DNA from: a virus
Lineage: Duplodnaviria > Caudoviricetes
Virus record (IMG/VR): IMGVR_UViG_3300033069_001193
Span: 1 to 64,000 of that record
Length of the DNA stretch: 64,000 nucleotides
Direction: 5' to 3' (one strand)
In this document: positions 22,638 to 29,898 of the stretch, in pieces
How positions within the stretch are numbered: position 1 is the stretch's first letter
How the letters are laid out: every line of letters begins with the position of its first letter
Translations under genes and position numbers: made by a program
The notes under the pieces: model-generated
Told to the model about the DNA's origin: nothing
The model's database searches: none
What the model saw: only the letters and a program-made list of their open reading frames with translations

Positions 22638-23159
22638 TCAGGCCGCCTCCGCGTCCTCGAAGGCCACATAGGTTCCGTGCGACCCGAGGCCCTTCCGAAC
22701 GTGTCCCAAGGACTCGCAGAAGACCAGATACTGTGCCGTCTTCTCCCGGATGGCCGTGACCTCACCGGTGATCGCTTCCTTGTCCCACAGCTGCCGCTTG
22801 AAGGCCACTCGTTGGCCCACGGAATATTGGGGGACCACCCCATGCTGTTGTACCCATGCCTCAACGACCTTTTCATGGATACGGTGCCGCAGGTTGACGA
22901 TCTCATCCAACACGCCGACCAGCGAACTGTCTGAATCCCACATGTGGCGATTGTCGAGCTCCTTGGCCACCTCGTAGCCGTCGTCGTGAAAGCGACAGGC
23001 GCTCGTCAGCTGTTCCAGAATGTCATGTTGCTCCTCGACGGTCGGATCCACACCTCCTCCCGACTTGAGCCACCGCAGTACTTTGGGCAGCAGGACTCGG
23101 GCAATTTCCAGGTCGATCTTTTCATCGTAGTGTGACGGGCGCTTTGCCTCTTCATTCAT
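22638..23159 (-). CDS. Hypothetical protein
   Basis: 173-aa ORF translationally coupled to dnaE-C stop. Confidence 0.6.
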   Translation of the reverse strand: MNEEAKRPSHYDEKIDLEIARVLLPKVLRWLKSGGGVDPTVEEQHDILEQLTSACRFHDDGYEVAKELDNRHMWDSDSSLVGVLDEIVNLRHRIHEKVVEAWVQQHGVVPQYSVGQRVAFKRQLWDKEAITGEVTAIREKTAQYLVFCESLGHVRKGLGSHGTYVAFEDAEAA

Positions 23160-24559
23160 GCGATCACCTTCACCTTGAATTTGGCCGTCGACAGACCGTA
23201 TTCGTCACGACGAACTTCCGCCACGCACAGCTTGAACGGTTCGGGCAGCTCCTTGCAACCCCACAGCGTCAAACGCAGGGGCTTGCCGATGGGACCGGTG
23301 ACATAGGCCTGAACGTATTCCTTACCGTTCTTCGTCTTCTTCTTGACGCCAGCAGAAGGGGCAGCGCCCTTCTTACCAGCGGCCAGGACGGTAACGAACC
23401 AGACGATGTCAGTCTGGCCCGTCTCTAGGTCCTCGATCGCTCTGACGTCTTTCTCGTCCAACCTCTCGAAGATGAAGGGATCGAACATCATAGTGACATC
23501 GGCGGTGCCGAAGAGTTCAGCCTGGAACTCAACGAGTTGACGCTGGGTCCACTCGGCACCATAAGGCTCGGCCAGTCCTCGGGCCAGAGCATAGAAGTTC
23601 TTGAGGCCCTCGTGTGGATCTTTCCTGGTGGAGCGCTTGATGAGCGCATTGTGGTCCCTGACACGAACCTTGGTCTCCTCAGATCCCTTGCGGACAGGTA
23701 CCGTCTCCTCGTAGCTGCCCAACAGGGTCTCGTACATGTGTCGGTACGACTTAAAGACCTTGTCGGGGCCGATGCAGTTCAGGCTGTCGAAGGCACGCAC
23801 CTTGATGAGGGCCTCCAGGGCCTTGCGGTTGAACTTCGACGGGCGCCAGGTGCCGTCCTCATTGTAGAGGAGCTCCTCAATCGTCTTCGGTGGGCGAGCA
23901 GAGCGCCGCATCTCTTCGAGTTCTTCGATCGCTGAATCACCGACGCCCTTGATCGACGTGATGCTAGGCATCAGCTTCTTGCCAGGAAGGACGCGCCAGC
24001 TGACAGTCGCATAGCTCACGTCGACGGGCACGATCTGATAGCCCAATGCACGTGCCTCGCCGAAGGCCTTAGCTCGTTGATCAGGACTGTGCGACATCGA
24101 CTCCAGATATGCCGACAGCCACTGTTCTTCGTAGTACGTCAGTAGCCAGGCGCACCAGTAGGAGTCGATGGCGTAAGCTACCGCGTGCGACTTGTTGAAG
24201 CCGTAACCAGCGAAGAAAAGGATCTTGTCGTACAGGTTGTTGGCGACGCTCTCTGCGTAACCGTTAGCGATGCAGCCTTTGACGAACCCGTCTCGGGTTT
24301 CCTGGGCGGCCTTCTTGGCCGCCTCGCCGCCCGAGATGCTGCGCTTCATGATGGCCCGACGCACCTCGTCGCACTTCTCCTTCGGGAAGCCGGCGACCTT
24401 CTCGGCCAGTTCCATCACCTGCTCCTGAAAAATTATACAGTTGTGCACGAGAAGGCCATTTGCGAAGAAGTTATGGTTCTTCTTGACCTGGATGTCGTAC
24501 ACGGGCTGCACCGGAGCGCGCTTGATTGCGCGAATCTTGACAGGAACTACGTCAGGCAT
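23156..24559 (-). CDS. dnaE: DNA polymerase III alpha, C-terminal half, preceded by a 40-aa split-intein C-fragment
   Basis: MPDVVPVKIRAIKR..PVYDIQVKKNHNFFANGLLVHN|CIIFQEQVM; GYGFNKSHAVAY; IKGVGD; GAGGTGG upstream of ATG 24559. Confidence 0.92.
   Translation of the reverse strand: MPDVVPVKIRAIKRAPVQPVYDIQVKKNHNFFANGLLVHNCIIFQEQVMELAEKVAGFPKEKCDEVRRAIMKRSISGGEAAKKAAQETRDGFVKGCIANGYAESVANNLYDKILFFAGYGFNKSHAVAYAIDSYWCAWLLTYYEEQWLSAYLESMSHSPDQRAKAFGEARALGYQIVPVDVSYATVSWRVLPGKKLMPSITSIKGVGDSAIEELEEMRRSARPPKTIEELLYNEDGTWRPSKFNRKALEALIKVRAFDSLNCIGPDKVFKSYRHMYETLLGSYEETVPVRKGSEETKVRVRDHNALIKRSTRKDPHEGLKNFYALARGLAEPYGAEWTQRQLVEFQAELFGTADVTMMFDPFIFERLDEKDVRAIEDLETGQTDIVWFVTVLAAGKKGAAPSAGVKKKTKNGKEYVQAYVTGPIGKPLRLTLWGCKELPEPFKLCVAEVRRDEYGLSTAKFKVKVIA
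24440..24559 (-). mobile_element. Split intein C-fragment (IntC, 40 aa)
   Basis: Block F VYDIQV, block G NFFANGLLVHN followed by Cys+1. Confidence 0.92.
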
Positions 24560-25031
24560 CGTCCACCTCGACAATATCGAACTCATCGAAGCAACACACT
24601 TCTTGATCGAGCATGCCGTCTTTCAAGCCCTCAAAAAGACCCGAGCCCGTGTTACGATTGTAGAACATCGCATCATTGTCACGATAGTCATCGATGAGCT
24701 TCACTTCGGTCCCCTCATCGAACCACTCTCCGGGACGAGAGACGTATTTGACCCGTTTAGCTGGTTGTAGAGCCGTAGATGAAAAGAAGCCTTCCACACC
24801 ATCACGCATCATCTTGACGTGAACAATTCTCTCGTTAAGATGGTCTGTTTGCAGACGTTCACCCTCGTCAACTACCCTGATCACGTTGGAACATGCAGTT
24901 GTCTTCTCTACCCACAGTGGGTCAAGAGGTGACGGATGATGTGGACACGCATGCCAGTCGTGTTGACGTTCACGCTCGAGCAGGCAAAACACACCCGTCA
25001 GGTGCGTGTAGCAAACAACGTAATCCTTCAT
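24552..25031 (-). CDS. Hypothetical protein between the dnaE halves
   Basis: 159-aa ORF; stop overlaps dnaE-C start. Confidence 0.6.
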   Translation of the reverse strand: MKDYVVCYTHLTGVFCLLERERQHDWHACPHHPSPLDPLWVEKTTACSNVIRVVDEGERLQTDHLNERIVHVKMMRDGVEGFFSSTALQPAKRVKYVSRPGEWFDEGTEVKLIDDYRDNDAMFYNRNTGSGLFEGLKDGMLDQEVCCFDEFDIVEVDDA

Positions 25032-25447
25032 TATTCACACTCCTGTTCACGGTAGGCGAAACACGCAGCACAGATATCGCGGCCAGGCGTTGACGTCCAA
25101 AATTTCTCGTGACAATCAACGCACGTTTGTGTTGGACTGCTGAGACCAGTGTGTGACGACATAGAGCGAGACAATACATCAGCATCCAACACGACCCGAC
25201 ACGGGTTGATCTTCGTGGCCAACGACGACGCGCATAGTTGGCAAACTGGTCCGTGAACAGACAACACACGTTGTCCATGATACTCGACTTCCATGTCATT
25301 GCCTACTTCCTCATAAGCCCTGAACGTGTCGAACCAATCGGCGTACGTGAGGTCATCACGCTTTCCCACTTCAACATGTGACTTCATTGTGTTGATGAAG
25401 TTTTGAAATGACGTAAGCAATTCCTTCTCAAAGTCCTCGATCTTCAT
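25031..25447 (-). CDS. Hypothetical protein with C-terminal CxxC pairs, between the dnaE halves
   Basis: CQLC, CVDC, CAAC; AGGAC upstream. Confidence 0.6.
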   Translation of the reverse strand: MKIEDFEKELLTSFQNFINTMKSHVEVGKRDDLTYADWFDTFRAYEEVGNDMEVEYHGQRVLSVHGPVCQLCASSLATKINPCRVVLDADVLSRSMSSHTGLSSPTQTCVDCHEKFWTSTPGRDICAACFAYREQECE

Positions 25448-25449
25448 GC

Positions 25450-26190
25450 CTAAATTGTCCTCAATTTGTGTGGATAGTTCACGGCCTCAGATTCCCAAAC
25501 ACGCCTCACCATGTAACCACGTGCCTCTGCAGCACGAGTGAATGATTCGTCGAGTCGATACTGTCGCTTCATCTTGGACGTCAATTCGTGTTTAGCACGG
25601 TTGCCGTGCCAATAGTCACCGTCAAATTCGACGAGCAAATTCTCAATCGGAACGTAGAAATCAAACTCATGATTGATGCCATCGATGCGATGCTTGTGAA
25701 CGACGTTATCACCATGCACCTCAATCATCTTTGTTTTGAACGCCAATTCCGCTTTCGAATTTCGCTTACGAGGAGGTTGATTACGTAGACCAGCGCTGAT
25801 CTTCAGCGAGTGCTCTTCAAAGAAGCCAGGCTCATGTGACTTCATGTGCCACGTCAATCCACGCTGACGCTTGCAAACTTTGCCACAGATCGTACACGCA
25901 ATAGATTTCTGTTCTTCAGTCGCTGAACAGTACGATCGATGCGATCGCAGCGATGTGTTTGACGTGAAAACCTTGCCACACGCATCGCACAGAAATTCCC
26001 CTTCTTTCCTGACGTTCTCACGGAGTTTGGTAACGTTGAGCTTAGCGATGTGCTCGTCTGTGAACTTTCGACCTTTGTACGTTTGTCGACGCCATTCTGA
26101 CAAACACTTGACGCTACATGCAACCGAACGTTCATTTCTTGTCGAATACGTCTTTCTGCACGTCTGACATTTCCTCTCTAGTTTGCTCAT
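25450..26190 (-). CDS. Zinc-finger + Vsr/DUF559-like putative homing endonuclease inside fractured dnaE
   Basis: CQTC..CSVKC; CDACGKVF..LRSHRSYC; CTICGKVC..LTWHMKSH; FDFYVP..LVEFDGDYWHG..RRVWESE; lower GC. Confidence 0.85.
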   Translation of the reverse strand: MSKLERKCQTCRKTYSTRNERSVACSVKCLSEWRRQTYKGRKFTDEHIAKLNVTKLRENVRKEGEFLCDACGKVFTSNTSLRSHRSYCSATEEQKSIACTICGKVCKRQRGLTWHMKSHEPGFFEEHSLKISAGLRNQPPRKRNSKAELAFKTKMIEVHGDNVVHKHRIDGINHEFDFYVPIENLLVEFDGDYWHGNRAKHELTSKMKRQYRLDESFTRAAEARGYMVRRVWESEAVNYPHKLRTI

Positions 26191-26512
26191 CTTCCAGCGC
26201 TGCTCCTGAAAGATAAGTATAGTCCTTGATCGAGAGGATTTCGTCATCAAGCGTAAGCTGCCCGGCCTTGATCCATCCACGTTGCGTCATGACGAGATGG
26301 TCTGCCGTGAGTTTGATGACTCCTACATCAGTGTCAAGCTCAATCACTTCTTTCACACCATTGCAAACCGCCGCAACGATTTCATCCTGCTCGAGCTCGC
26401 CAGTCTCCTCGTTGTACGAAGGAAGCGTGACACCGACCATTTGTTGATCAACGATTTCCTTGATCGTGAATTCACCGTAGTCAGTCATCACTTTCGCATC
26501 CCCCGTCAAACA
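26132..26512 (-). mobile_element. Split intein N-fragment (IntN, 126 aa)
   Basis: Block A CLTGDAKV, block B IKLTADHLVMTQRGWIKAGQL, ends at a stop codon with no block F/G. Confidence 0.92.
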
Positions 26513-29032
26513 GGAGAACGTCTTCTTCAGGATTTCATTGATGCGCTTGTCGCCCCATTCGATCTCCTTGCCTTCGTTCTTCGCCTCGAGGTACAGCTTG
26601 TCGACCTTGGCGGCAAGAGGACCTGGACGGTAGATCGACGTCAGGGTCGCGATGTCGATGACGCTCTTGGGTTGAGCCCTCACGAAGAGACGCTGTGCGC
26701 CGGTTCCGGTGCACTGGAAGATACCAGCCCAGCGGCCCCGAGCGTAGACCTCATAGGGCTTGGGATCATCGAAGTTGATGACGTTAGGCGCCAGGTGCGT
26801 TTCGTACCAGGCCTTGATCTGGTCGAAGGTGGGCGTCGGATTGCCTTCCTTCATCAGGATGAGCTCGATGGTTCGCTCGATGAGCCGCATCGTCTCCAGG
26901 CCCAGGAGATCGTACTTGATGAACTCGCCCACCTTCTCCAGGTGCTTGTAGTTCACGCCCTCGACCCAGGGTGACTGCGGTTCACGAACGTCGCCCTTCC
27001 CCTTTGACGTGACCAGGGGCATCTTGCTGGGCAGGTCGTCGGCGATCAACACGCCACCGGCGTGGCGACCCAGCGACCTGTTCTGCTTGAAGAGCACCTT
27101 GATGGACTCGGCGACGACCGGATTCCGGTCGATGAAGTCGCGAAACGACGGGCTGACGGGTTGCGTGCACTCGTCGGTGCAACCCGAGCAAATGGGACGA
27201 GCGTTGGGCTCGTGGCGCTTGGCGCAGACAAAGGCCATCGCGTCGTCGTAGGTGAGGACGAACAGGTTCTTGTCGTCGCCTTCCTTAGTCGTGGCCTTGC
27301 GTACCTCGTCCTCGACGGTGCGAGTGGCCGCGTTGGTCTCCTCGAAAGAAACACCGTAGAACTTCCCGATGTCTTTCACGAGGGTTTTCAATTTGAACGT
27401 ATTGTAGTTCGAGATGGGGACAACGTTCTCCCAACCGAAGAAGTCACGCAGCTGGGCCAGAACCTTGTCACGATCGGCCAGATCGGTGTCGATGTCTGGC
27501 GCGCCCTTCCTATAGACGCTGAGGAAGCGGGCAAAAGGCAGATCCCAGAACAACGGGTCGAGGTCGGTGATGTAGAGGACGTAAGCGACCAGCGAACCGC
27601 CGCCCGAACCGCGCGCAGGGCCCACCAGGCACACTTTTCGCGCGAGCTCCATGATTTTCTGGTAGCTGATGAAGTACACCGCGTTCTTCATCGCCTTGAT
27701 GACGCCCAGTTCCTCCTTCAGGCGGGCAACGTACTCTGGCTTGTCCTGAAGCCCGCGCTTAGTCAAGCCGACCTTGCACAGGTCAACCAGGTGGTTAAAG
27801 GGTGTGGTCCCCTCGGGCACCAGAAGCTTGGTCGGAAACTTGGGTGACCGGTCAGGAGGAACCTCCCCAATGACCTGGTGTGCGATGTCGTGGGTCCGCT
27901 CGATGGCCTCGCACACTAGCTCGTCATCGTAGAACGACGTCCCCACCTTTGACTTCAGGTACTCATCCCACACCTGAGCGGCATTCTTCGGGTACAGCTC
28001 ACACTTCAGGTCGTCCTTCGACTTAGGCAGCGACTCCGGATCGTAGGCCGCGTAGTTCATGAAGCCGAGCTTCTTGTAGAGCTCGCGGTCCTTCCAGCGA
28101 TCGGGATGGTAGTAGTGAGCATCACAGGTGACGACTAGCTGCTTGGTCGTCCCAGCCCGACGGGCGAACTCGATGATGGCTCGGTTGACCAAGTTCTGGG
28201 CGGGCAGCCGATTGAACTGCAACTCCAGGTAGTAGTTGCCCACACCGACCGCACTGGTCATCTGGTCGTAGACGTTGCCGATGCCCGCAATGCACTTCTC
28301 GAGCAGCAGCGGGTCGTCGAGCAACTTCTCCGAGAAGTCATCGAACTTGATCTTCTGGAGCTCTTGGAAGACGGCATAGGCGGGCATCCCGCCGATGCAG
28401 GCGGAGGAGACGACGATGTTGCCTTCTTTACCTGCCTCACGCAGCACCTTCCAGTCGATGCGGGGGAAACCGTAGAAGCCCTTGAGGTACGCCTTGGAGC
28501 AGGCAGCGAAGATGCTGAGCAGGCCTTTTTGGTTCTTGGGCAGGACGACCAGATGGTGCCGACGCTTGATGGGATTGAAGTGTTTGGTCGACTTGGTCTC
28601 GTCCTCATTTTCGATGGTGAGGGCGTTGGTCATCTCGATGTCTTCGGTCTCGTCATTGCCGTCGACGATGGCAATGACCTTCGTTGCGAGCTTCTCCTGC
28701 TCCTTGGCCAGCTTCTCAGCCGCCTTCTTGTCAGCCTTCGCCTGCTCGGCCGCCTCGACGTGGCGTTGCCACTCTTCGAGGTCAGGGTGGTAGTAGGCCT
28801 CCACCCCCGGGATGTACTTGAAGTGCTTGTCCTTGTTGGCCTTCGCCCAGTCCTCGACCCACAACTGCGCGTGGGCATAACTCGACATGTTCCCATGCTC
28901 AGTGATGGCATGGGCGTCGAGTCCATTTTCCATGCAAAACTTAAAGTGATCATCAGGATACCCGAGTCCATCAAAACTCGAGAACATCGTGTGATTGTGA
29001 AGGCCAACAAACCGGTTCGGAGCTCGACTCAT
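26132..29032 (-). CDS. dnaE: DNA polymerase III alpha, N-terminal half (PHP + Pol), ending in a split-intein N-fragment
   Basis: LHNHTMFSSFDG, PGVEAY, GPARGSGGGSLVAY, PDIDTD, GRHAGGV, KYDLLGL, RPGPL, then FS|CLTGD. Confidence 0.95.
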   Translation of the reverse strand: MSRAPNRFVGLHNHTMFSSFDGLGYPDDHFKFCMENGLDAHAITEHGNMSSYAHAQLWVEDWAKANKDKHFKYIPGVEAYYHPDLEEWQRHVEAAEQAKADKKAAEKLAKEQEKLATKVIAIVDGNDETEDIEMTNALTIENEDETKSTKHFNPIKRRHHLVVLPKNQKGLLSIFAACSKAYLKGFYGFPRIDWKVLREAGKEGNIVVSSACIGGMPAYAVFQELQKIKFDDFSEKLLDDPLLLEKCIAGIGNVYDQMTSAVGVGNYYLELQFNRLPAQNLVNRAIIEFARRAGTTKQLVVTCDAHYYHPDRWKDRELYKKLGFMNYAAYDPESLPKSKDDLKCELYPKNAAQVWDEYLKSKVGTSFYDDELVCEAIERTHDIAHQVIGEVPPDRSPKFPTKLLVPEGTTPFNHLVDLCKVGLTKRGLQDKPEYVARLKEELGVIKAMKNAVYFISYQKIMELARKVCLVGPARGSGGGSLVAYVLYITDLDPLFWDLPFARFLSVYRKGAPDIDTDLADRDKVLAQLRDFFGWENVVPISNYNTFKLKTLVKDIGKFYGVSFEETNAATRTVEDEVRKATTKEGDDKNLFVLTYDDAMAFVCAKRHEPNARPICSGCTDECTQPVSPSFRDFIDRNPVVAESIKVLFKQNRSLGRHAGGVLIADDLPSKMPLVTSKGKGDVREPQSPWVEGVNYKHLEKVGEFIKYDLLGLETMRLIERTIELILMKEGNPTPTFDQIKAWYETHLAPNVINFDDPKPYEVYARGRWAGIFQCTGTGAQRLFVRAQPKSVIDIATLTSIYRPGPLAAKVDKLYLEAKNEGKEIEWGDKRINEILKKTFSCLTGDAKVMTDYGEFTIKEIVDQQMVGVTLPSYNEETGELEQDEIVAAVCNGVKEVIELDTDVGVIKLTADHLVMTQRGWIKAGQLTLDDEILSIKDYTYLSGAALEDEQTREEMSDVQKDVFDKK

Positions 29033-29643
29033 TCTTGTTTCAAGATACCATAGTTTTTGGTCTTACTACACTGCAGGTACTTTTGAGCGTTCACCACAAA
29101 TTTAGAATCCTCCACGACAGCAAGCTTCAGATTGCACGGTCTACAAAGCAGTCCACGGATCTGACCAGACGCATGATCATGATCAACTGCAATGTTGTCT
29201 TCTGTCAGAAGATTTTCGCACAGGGGACAACGATCCGATTGCTCACTTGAAATCGTGTCATATTCCTTCTTACCAATTCCGTAACGCTGGATGCGTCTAC
29301 AAAACACCGGCGACGGCGCGCACGAGTGACAGTAGATCTGATTCCCAGATTGCGGGGTGTATTCATCGCCACATTGTTTACACGACTTGACAGGATGCGT
29401 CCGATTCCTGATCGCTGAAAGGTGCTTCTCAGACTGCGCATTTCGCGATCGCTTAAGCTCAAAGCGATGGATTGCGTAGTGGACTTGGCCAAGAGTCAAG
29501 TCTAGACCGCGAGCAAGAAGCAATTCACGGATTTCAGCAGCAGATCGACATTCATTGAGGTACCAGACCGTGATATTGGTACGAAATGCGTCAAGCTGTT
29601 CTTGTTGCTTCGCCCTGGCAGTGTTACGGTTTTTGGCGCCCAC
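29029..29643 (-). CDS. Endonuclease VII-family (His-Me finger) putative homing endonuclease
   Basis: CPLCE..IAVDHDHASGQIRGLLCRPCN; upstream TACAAT 8 nt from GTG; lower GC. Confidence 0.85.
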   Translation of the reverse strand: MGAKNRNTARAKQQEQLDAFRTNITVWYLNECRSAAEIRELLLARGLDLTLGQVHYAIHRFELKRSRNAQSEKHLSAIRNRTHPVKSCKQCGDEYTPQSGNQIYCHSCAPSPVFCRRIQRYGIGKKEYDTISSEQSDRCPLCENLLTEDNIAVDHDHASGQIRGLLCRPCNLKLAVVEDSKFVVNAQKYLQCSKTKNYGILKQE

Positions 29644-29898
29644 AAGGTGACATTGTACTACCCGAAGTGGGAAAACTGCACCATCAGTCCATTCCCGTAG
29701 ATCTCTTGACGGCGTTCAAGAGGTCATAGTGCTCGCTGACAAATCAACCCTTCGTCATTACAATAACGACGTCACCTAAGGACAACAATGACGTGGTCCG
29801 ACGTGGGCCTATTCAAGTTGAGCGGCTACAACTCGTGTAGGAGAGCTAACGTCTCATCGCTTGACTTGTCGAACGGTTTACGCAGCAGCGTTCGTGGA

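Follow-up and report, generated by a model that had tools for sequence, protein, structure and literature searches.

A fractured dnaE gene with a predicted trans-splicing split intein and a free-standing zinc-finger/Vsr-like endonuclease in a metagenomic phage fragment

Layout of the locus

The window analyzed here is a stretch of 64,000 nucleotides (nt), positions 1 to 64,000 of the IMG/VR virus record IMGVR_UViG_3300033069_001193 (Duplodnaviria; Caudoviricetes). We have focused on its dnaE gene for the DNA polymerase III (Pol III) alpha subunit, which lies there in two halves carrying the N-terminal (IntN) and C-terminal (IntC) parts of an intein, with a gene for a homing endonuclease between them. 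The source record comprises 85.8 kb, with a completeness of 25% estimated by CheckV. Since the nearest relatives of the window are contigs of 127-369 kb, it most likely represents a piece of an uncultured giant phage. No similar DNA was found in cultured phages, and the best match of its DnaE among them is only 26-28% identical. For comparison, a set of 80 related viral loci (numbers starting with L) has been used, and each part of the window locus was mapped onto each of them.

On the minus strand, five closely packed genes run from 29032 to 23156, in the order dnaE-N/IntN, endonuclease, o138, o159, and IntC/dnaE-C. The features of this block are as follows (ORF, open reading frame; aa, amino acids).

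26132..29032, minus strand: ORF of dnaE-N plus IntN, 966 aa (840 aa of DnaE and 126 aa of IntN)
26513..29032, minus strand: dnaE N-extein, 840 aa, covering PHP, the Pol III alpha core and the start of the finger domain
26135..26512, minus strand: IntN, 126 aa, with its stop codon at 26132-26134
26186..26217, minus strand: RNA hairpin with a 12-bp stem, the 3' arm of which holds the endonuclease AUG (26190-26188) and the preceding GGAAG
25450..26190, minus strand: free-standing homing endonuclease, 246 aa, with a Cys4 ribbon, two C2H2 fingers and a Vsr-like nuclease domain
25031..25447, minus strand: o138, 138 aa, Cys-rich in its C-terminal half
24552..25031, minus strand: o159, 159 aa, all-beta
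23156..24586, minus strand: longest ORF of IntC plus dnaE-C; likely start ATG 24559, 467 aa from that ATG
24440..24559, minus strand: IntC, 40 aa from ATG 24559, with blocks F and G and the terminal His-Asn
23156..24439, minus strand: dnaE C-extein, 427 aa plus stop, with the +1 Cys encoded by TGT 24439-24437

The likely start of the IntC ORF, ATG 24559, is preceded by GAGGTG and overlaps the stop codon of o159 as ATGCCTGA (8-nt overlap), and independent gene calls in many other datasets begin this ORF at the same MPDVVP start. From the IntN stop to the IntC ATG there are 1573 nt. The first 59 nt of the endonuclease ORF lie inside the end of the IntN ORF, o138 starts 2 nt past the endonuclease stop with a ribosome-binding site GAGGA, and the o138 stop and the o159 start overlap in TAATG. 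By consensus scan, no terminator was found on the coding strand within the five-gene block, and promoter matches, which include one weak match (9 of 12) inside o138, were within chance in total; the five genes are probably transcribed as one transcript. An earlier note made from the sequence of the window had given the two ORFs with the intein halves, and their coordinates and sequences are as listed here; it had omitted that three genes, not one, separate the halves.

The split intein and its alleles

The dnaE gene is divided within the finger domain. In the N-half, the Pfam domains PHP (3e-23), DNA_pol3_alpha (1e-44) and DNA_pol3_finger (3e-19) were found, the last of which ends at profile position 116 of 166; in the C-half, the finger profile picks up at position 113 and is accompanied by HHH_6 (2.6e-9). 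PHROG 405 (DNA polymerase) is divided likewise, the N-half matching its profile from 41 to 716 and the C-half from 714 to 989. The C-extein contains the rest of the finger domain, an intact GFNKSH, HhH and the C-terminal domain. At the junctions, the N-extein terminates in ...ILKKTFS and is followed by CLTGD of IntN, while the C-extein begins with CIIFQEQVM straight after ...NGLLVHN of IntC, and the YGFNKSH in the C-half stands uninterrupted 79 residues downstream of this splice site. Splicing would produce a DnaE of 840 + 427 = 1267 aa, and the uninterrupted homologue of L003 has about 1263 codons. L003 and L004, the two nearest relatives, both have one uninterrupted dnaE, in which the matches to the N-extein (80% identical) and the C-extein (71% identical) abut to the base, and L003 reads ...ILKKTFS CIIFQEQVMELAEKV, which is the exact ligation product predicted for the window's halves. 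Most other relatives are also uninterrupted at the splice point, many of them with Cys at +1.

Both intein halves match solved intein structures. In phmmer searches against PDB, IntN matched the Spl DnaX mini-intein (7cfv, 1.4e-11), the NrdJ-1 split intein (8ubs, 3e-8), and also DnaB and RecA inteins; IntC matched the C-terminus of 7cfv (6e-7) and, more weakly, the C-termini of NrdJ-1, gp41-1, Npu DnaE and other inteins. In addition, IntC corresponds to positions 117-155 of the Pfam Intein_splicing profile. Because IntN covers residues 3-112 and IntC residues 106-137 of 7cfv, and thus jointly 3-137 of 137, the halves together make up a splicing domain without a missing part. They reside on separate polypeptides with stop codons between the ORFs, as expected of a split intein. 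Their net charges are opposite, -17 for IntN (pI 4.1) and +4 for IntC (pI 10.2). In the entire 85.8-kb record, the intein profile PF14890 matched IntC only.

The catalytic residues of a class-1 intein are present. The nucleophile Cys1 directly follows the N-extein (TFS|CLTGD) and is kept in the window, L002, L010, L011 and all representatives with an intein at the same site. Block B has the pattern T-x-x-H, with TADH in the window and TEDH or TSDH in other alleles, aligning with TGNH of 7cfv. Blocks F and G end in His-Asn followed by the +1 Cys, i.e., ...VYDIQVKKNHNFFANGLLVHN|C, and align to the 7cfv C-terminus. Every one of the four full alleles (window, L002, L010 and L011) retains all of these catalytic positions (Cys1, T-x-D-H, His-Asn and +1 Cys). 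The ratio dN/dS for IntN is 0.04-0.38 between alleles and IntC is almost invariant; by this measure, both halves are under purifying selection. From the catalytic residues and this selection, we predict trans-splicing and regard the split intein as very probably functional.

About 99 of the 126 aa of IntN represent the N-lobe of the intein fold, and the other 27 aa form an acidic tail. In the window and L010, this tail is the frame read 27 codons into the 5' end of the endonuclease element, and IntN of L002 and L011 ends after 98 aa.

On these results, the main claims of the earlier note hold: a dnaE fractured by a naturally split intein with acidic IntN and basic IntC, at a site other than the cyanobacterial one, and an uninterrupted 840 + 427 aa DnaE as the predicted splicing product, which is how the intein-less alleles of L003 and L004 read.

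Split alleles have been found at the same site in the following relatives (percentages are identities to the window).

L002, 340-kb contig: split intein at the same site; IntN 63%, IntC 78%, endonuclease 67%
L010 and L035, the same phage in two sister samples: IntN 85%, endonuclease 83%, o138 87%, o159 91%, IntC 94%
L011, 309-kb contig: split intein kept, endonuclease decayed
L015, contig edge: IntC only

The five-gene order of the window is thus repeated in L010/L035 at 83-94% protein identity. When IntN was searched by HMMER against 1.84 billion representative proteins, 763 matches were obtained. At least 10 representatives (at 50% identity) are N-halves of DnaE that end in IntN at the same site (T-Y-G|C or similar), and about 12 further IntN-bearing representatives have their site two residues downstream of the window's. 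In DnaE proteins longer than 2,100 aa, contiguous inteins were found one residue downstream of the window's site; one member of these clusters sits on a 1.3-Mb contig, which points to a cellular origin. With the IntC end as query, at least 23 clusters (90% identity) of C-halves were obtained that start with an IntC of 38-45 aa and continue with C(I/V)IFQEQ, drawn from JGI, ENA, Logan and NCBI. Names of the clusters with same-site inteins were generic only (hypothetical protein, or DNA polymerase III alpha subunit).

Insertions at other positions of dnaE were also observed in the relatives. In G001, the record of L010, dnaE is spread over six consecutive ORFs of 569, 181, 299, 247, 279 and 386 aa (L010:1-9100, L035:1-9234, L089-L093). 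Split-intein halves can be recognised at four of the junctions, with a separate endonuclease-like ORF lying between the halves at each, while the third junction (near residue 730) has no intein motifs and resembles the intein-less fractured NrdA of phage Aeh1. In L006, L007, L008, L011 and L027, insertions lie elsewhere, at about residues 213, 475, 730-748 and 774 of the N-extein and about 75-95 of the C-extein (window numbering). The insertion near residue 213 in L007 and L027 has recognisable intein N- and C-parts, and L007 shows a weak match to the Vsr-like endonuclease domain as well. In this phage clade, dnaE is a hot spot for mobile elements.

Directly upstream of dnaE in the window, with a 4-nt start overlap, there is a gene for 204 aa (29029-29643, minus strand) with a Recombination endonuclease VII domain (Pfam 3e-17), and L002 has a homologue at the same place; this may be another free-standing mobile nuclease beside the polymerase gene.

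The split dnaE of Rossellomorea phage phiT1 (PV767480.1, L094:2492-5774) was considered as a cultured counterpart and rejected, being divided at another position and having no intein-sized insert. Its DnaE is annotated as two genes, gp20 and gp18, separated by a 49-aa ORF; this gap is too small for an intein or an endonuclease, and the split is of a different kind.

Endonuclease, cargo and signs of homing

The endonuclease is intact and combines an N-terminal Cys4 ribbon with two C2H2 zinc fingers (Pfam zf-C2H2 1e-9; ZFP91 in PDB 1.7e-9) and a C-terminal nuclease domain, and its PHROG matches are homing/HNH endonuclease families. At least 33 homologous clusters (P0001-P0033) of about 245-340 aa share eukaryote-like C2H2 fingers and the Vsr-like nuclease; several of these homologues are named very-short-patch-repair endonuclease by JGI, and the longer ones have additional Cys-rich modules at the N-terminus. 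In an alignment of 26 homologues (A1), the residues H, D, E, D, W, H and D are invariant; the C-terminal domain has the invariant motifs HEFDF and EFDGDYWHGN and, beyond these, an invariant Asp and Arg. The invariant residues include D178, E189, D191, H196 and D215 (A1 numbering); their correspondence to D51, H69 and D97 of Vsr is a proposed one. The AF2 model of the endonuclease (pLDDT 91) matched, by Foldseek, E. coli Vsr (1cw0 and 1vsr) and, from the homing endonuclease I-Bth0305I, its catalytic domain (3r3p), each with probability 1.00 and TM scores (target) of 0.47-0.55. On the nuclease domain, Pfam gave a weak match to REase_MTES_1575 (E = 0.025). In a search of PDB sequences with a profile of the endonuclease family, zinc-finger matches dominated and no residue-level alignment to Vsr was obtained. 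On the basis of the model, the endonuclease is assigned a predicted Vsr-type nuclease fold (EDxHD family). No paper on the combination of C2H2 fingers, homing endonuclease and Vsr was found in the indexed literature.

The hairpin at the start of the endonuclease gene, which holds the AUG within its 12-bp stem as described for fractured genes, folds with -32.3 kcal/mol in a 101-nt context (z = -2.66; 3 of 200 shuffled sequences fold as well). The same hairpin is found in L010 and L002, with weaker z there (-1.5 and -1.2), and a U-G pair is replaced with C-G in L002. In L002, the hairpin accompanies the endonuclease, not IntN.

For the two other genes between the intein halves, searches have provided little information. 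Pfam, PHROG and ESM Atlas gave no informative match for o138; for o159, there was no match in Pfam or PHROG and nothing in ESM Atlas, and its AF2 model (pLDDT 78) had no significant fold match in PDB. Copies of o138 (87% identical) and o159 (91% identical) occupy the same place in L010/L035, o138 is broken in L011, and both genes are missing from L002. No homologue of either gene was found outside the cassette except for the C-terminal domain of o159. This domain of about 65 aa (24552-24750, minus strand) is a conserved small beta domain with motifs WFDEGTEVKLIDDYR, GLFEG and EVCxFDEF; it is common to 7 clusters and is also found in a few ORFs of 92-134 aa, in proteins P0328-P0330, and in L084:4001-4177. 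We have treated o138 and o159 as passengers. L002 has instead about 2 kb between IntN and the endonuclease hairpin (L002:5243-7230), including a glycine-rich ORF of 303 aa without a Pfam match and about 1 kb without a long ORF, and its endonuclease directly adjoins IntC. The space between the intein halves thus differs among phages, and the cassette has gained cargo of different kinds, on opposite sides of the endonuclease, in the window and in L002.

Signs of homing were found in the codons and in the distribution of identity. The C-extein start CIIFQEQVME is encoded by TGT ATA ATT TTT CAG GAG CAG GTG ATG GAA in the intein-bearing alleles (with minor variants) and by TGC ATC ATC TTC CAG GAA CAG GTC ATG GAG in the empty ones. 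Over the initial 60 nt of the C-extein, the window and L002 share 97% nucleotide identity, which falls to 62-68% just past this stretch. L011 is a mosaic, in which the side from o138 through IntC to the extein is like the window (83-92%) and IntN is nearer to that of L002. In the same locus (L011:5291-6067), only the last 69 codons of the endonuclease are left and an unrelated ORF of 109 aa breaks up o138, while IntN, IntC and all splicing residues are intact despite the decay. The model of Dassa et al. (2009; PMC2677866) predicts a stage at which the endonuclease is lost and the intein retained, and L011 fits such a decay stage of the homing cycle. Judged from the sequences, the allele patterns as a whole fit what homing would leave behind if co-conversion tracts are short, the cassette recombines internally and the endonuclease decays afterwards.

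Proposed mechanism, alternatives and relation to known systems

From comparison of sequences, we conclude with high confidence that the locus is what Dassa et al. (2009) called a fractured gene, here a dnaE split by a predicted trans-splicing intein with a free-standing endonuclease. The mechanism proposed here adds two activities that we infer, splicing and DNA cleavage, to the observed anatomy, homology, catalytic residues, empty sites, allelic conservation and co-conversion signature. An intein would have invaded the finger domain of dnaE between T-F-S and C-I-I-F-Q-E-Q and would then have been split, at the usual point of endonuclease insertion, by a free-standing homing endonuclease gene. 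By analogy with the intein family, the acidic IntN and basic IntC would associate and fold into one HINT domain, and class-1 trans-splicing would proceed by an N-S acyl shift at Cys1, trans-thioesterification to the +1 Cys, cyclisation of the terminal Asn and an S-N shift. The products would be a 1267-aa DnaE with the junction ...KKTFS-CIIFQEQ... and the free intein halves. In co-infection, the zinc-finger/Vsr-like endonuclease would cut intein-less dnaE alleles, and repair would copy the entire cassette together with a short flanking stretch of extein, which would account for the mosaic alleles and the shared recoded codons.

Several points weigh against this interpretation. The 27-aa tail of IntN is unusual and may have an effect on splicing, and the two extra ORFs, o138 and o159, are left unexplained by the fractured-gene model. 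Expression of the endonuclease may be poor, as a good Shine-Dalgarno sequence is missing and the hairpin encloses the start codon. Cleavage of the intein-less allele is pointed to by two indirect signs only, namely the shared recoded codons and the short high-identity tract by the insertion, and the shared codons could reflect protection of the occupied site from re-cleavage, instead of or besides co-conversion. The record, moreover, is a metagenome-assembled fragment that is estimated to be one quarter complete.

The alternative that survives best, though we consider it improbable, is that the intein halves no longer splice and serve only as high-affinity dimerisation domains that hold the DnaE fragments together non-covalently, as in the fractured NrdA of Aeh1. 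Fracture without an intein has been described (PMC2677866 and PMC3045599), and it occurs within this gene family at the third junction of the six-piece dnaE mentioned above. However, mere association would not need retained nucleophiles, and every allele keeps Cys1, T-x-x-H, His-Asn and the +1 Cys, even where IntN identity falls to about 63%, in addition to the purifying selection on both halves.

It is still less probable that the arrangement is an assembly artefact, or a pseudogenised dnaE broken by a junk insertion. This would be conceivable for one metagenomic contig of such low estimated completeness, but the same five genes recur in the samples of L010 and L035, with variants in L002 and L011, and both dnaE halves are open frames with conserved domains. 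Because halves with the same junctions are present in dozens of independent protein clusters from four sources, an artefact is excluded for practical purposes. Rejoining of the halves at the RNA level by a group I or II intron containing the endonuclease has a negligible chance of being right. Even at E <= 1, the region 23000-29800 gave no match to an Rfam intron family; the boundaries at the junctions are those of an intein at the protein level, its N- and C-terminal blocks being read in the same frame as the exteins; and a product of RNA-intron removal would retain intein residues. The earlier note had named assembly error and an RNA-level intron as outcomes that would overturn its reading, and neither has gained support.

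We regard the fractured dnaE with its predicted trans-splicing intein as a real, well-conserved example of an arrangement first described in 2009, not as a new kind of system, and the current view of how fractured genes work is unaltered. As to novelty, the earlier note was right that fractured genes with Vsr-like endonucleases are known, but it understated how well known they are, considering the published DnaE loci, the insertion hot spot and the same-site metagenomic inteins. What stands above routine is the completeness of the locus, its natural allele series, the zinc-finger/Vsr-like endonuclease, and the relative with a six-piece dnaE. A complete split-intein pair is available with its native exteins, several natural alleles and matching empty-site alleles, and this is a ready set for studying how fast trans-splicing proceeds, how it depends on the exteins (-1 Ser/Gly/Asn, +1 Cys-Ile-Ile) and how orthogonal the pair is. 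The locus is also a candidate for work on homing, since the recoded codons, the mosaic alleles and the decay in L011 point to consecutive stages of that cycle within a single phage clade, and the endonuclease may interest nuclease engineers. Three wider readings are tentative, being a little more apt to fail than to hold: that IntN/IntC would be a widespread, uncharacterised split-intein family at T-Y-G|C-I-I-F-Q-E-Q and a possible orthogonal tool, that the C2H2-Vsr endonuclease would have an undescribed architecture and amount to a natural zinc-finger nuclease, and that the fracture would act as a landing pad accumulating genes (o138/o159, and the 2-kb insert of L002) and multiplying to the six pieces of dnaE in the relative.

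No paper on the motifs of the window's intein was found in a literature search, and comparison has been made with known systems of similar architecture. Fractured genes were defined by Dassa et al. (2009; PMC2677866), who reported three DnaE loci, at three different sites and none of them the cyanobacterial one, that carry split inteins and free-standing endonucleases; the endonuclease of DnaE-2 is Vsr-like. The window shows the same arrangement, having both dnaE halves in one locus on one strand with an endonuclease between the intein halves, and it resembles DnaE-1, DnaE-2 and DnaE-3 in the split Pol III alpha, the free-standing endonuclease, the non-cyanobacterial site and the 5' hairpin of the endonuclease gene. 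In 15 of the published loci, the upstream coding region overlaps the IntC start by 6-69 bp, and the ORF before IntC does so in the window also, although the overlapping gene is o159, not the endonuclease. The window differs in having three genes between the halves instead of one, in its endonuclease adjoining IntN rather than IntC, and in the C2H2 fingers of this endonuclease, of which that paper makes no mention. Moreover, its host would be a giant phage and its halves are complete, whereas the published DnaE loci are not among the five assembled with both termini complete; the window's site may still coincide with one of the three published ones.

The finger domain of Pol III alpha was reported as an intein hot spot by Novikova et al. 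(2016; PMC4760082), with insertion points a-d and g lying within 75 residues, point a being the cyanobacterial split site. The window's site, 79 residues upstream of GFNKSH, is at or just past the edge of this region. Like the cyanobacterial Ssp and Npu DnaE inteins, the window's intein is a naturally split class-1 intein in the DnaE finger, with an acidic N-half, a basic C-half and a +1 Cys. However, it does not occupy the G|FNKSH site, and its halves are 1.57 kb apart with an endonuclease, whereas the cyanobacterial halves are at distant loci without one (PMC2677866); sequence similarity to the cyanobacterial halves is marginal (PDB E = 0.1-2).

Among other inteins, the metagenomic phage split inteins gp41-1, NrdJ-1 and IMPDH-1 share the genomic arrangement and the fold. 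For IntN, NrdJ-1 (8ubs) ranks second among the solved matches, and IntC is weakly like gp41-1 and NrdJ-1; these inteins nevertheless belong to other host proteins and sites, and identity is low, so the window's pair is distinct. By sequence, the nearest solved structure for both halves is the Spl DnaX mini-intein (7cfv), with a C-terminal block nearly identical to that of IntC, but it is contiguous and cis-splicing and belongs to a cyanobacterial clamp-loader subunit, being neither split nor in DnaE. For the endonuclease, the closest comparison is I-Bth0305I, the prototype of the EDxHD family, which was defined from Vsr-like endonucleases of fractured genes (PMC3239194). Both have a C-terminal domain assigned to the Vsr fold, conserved acidic and His residues, and an N-terminal DNA-binding region, whereas I-Bth0305I is intron-encoded with NUMOD/HTH and the window's endonuclease is free-standing with a Cys4 ribbon and two C2H2 fingers.

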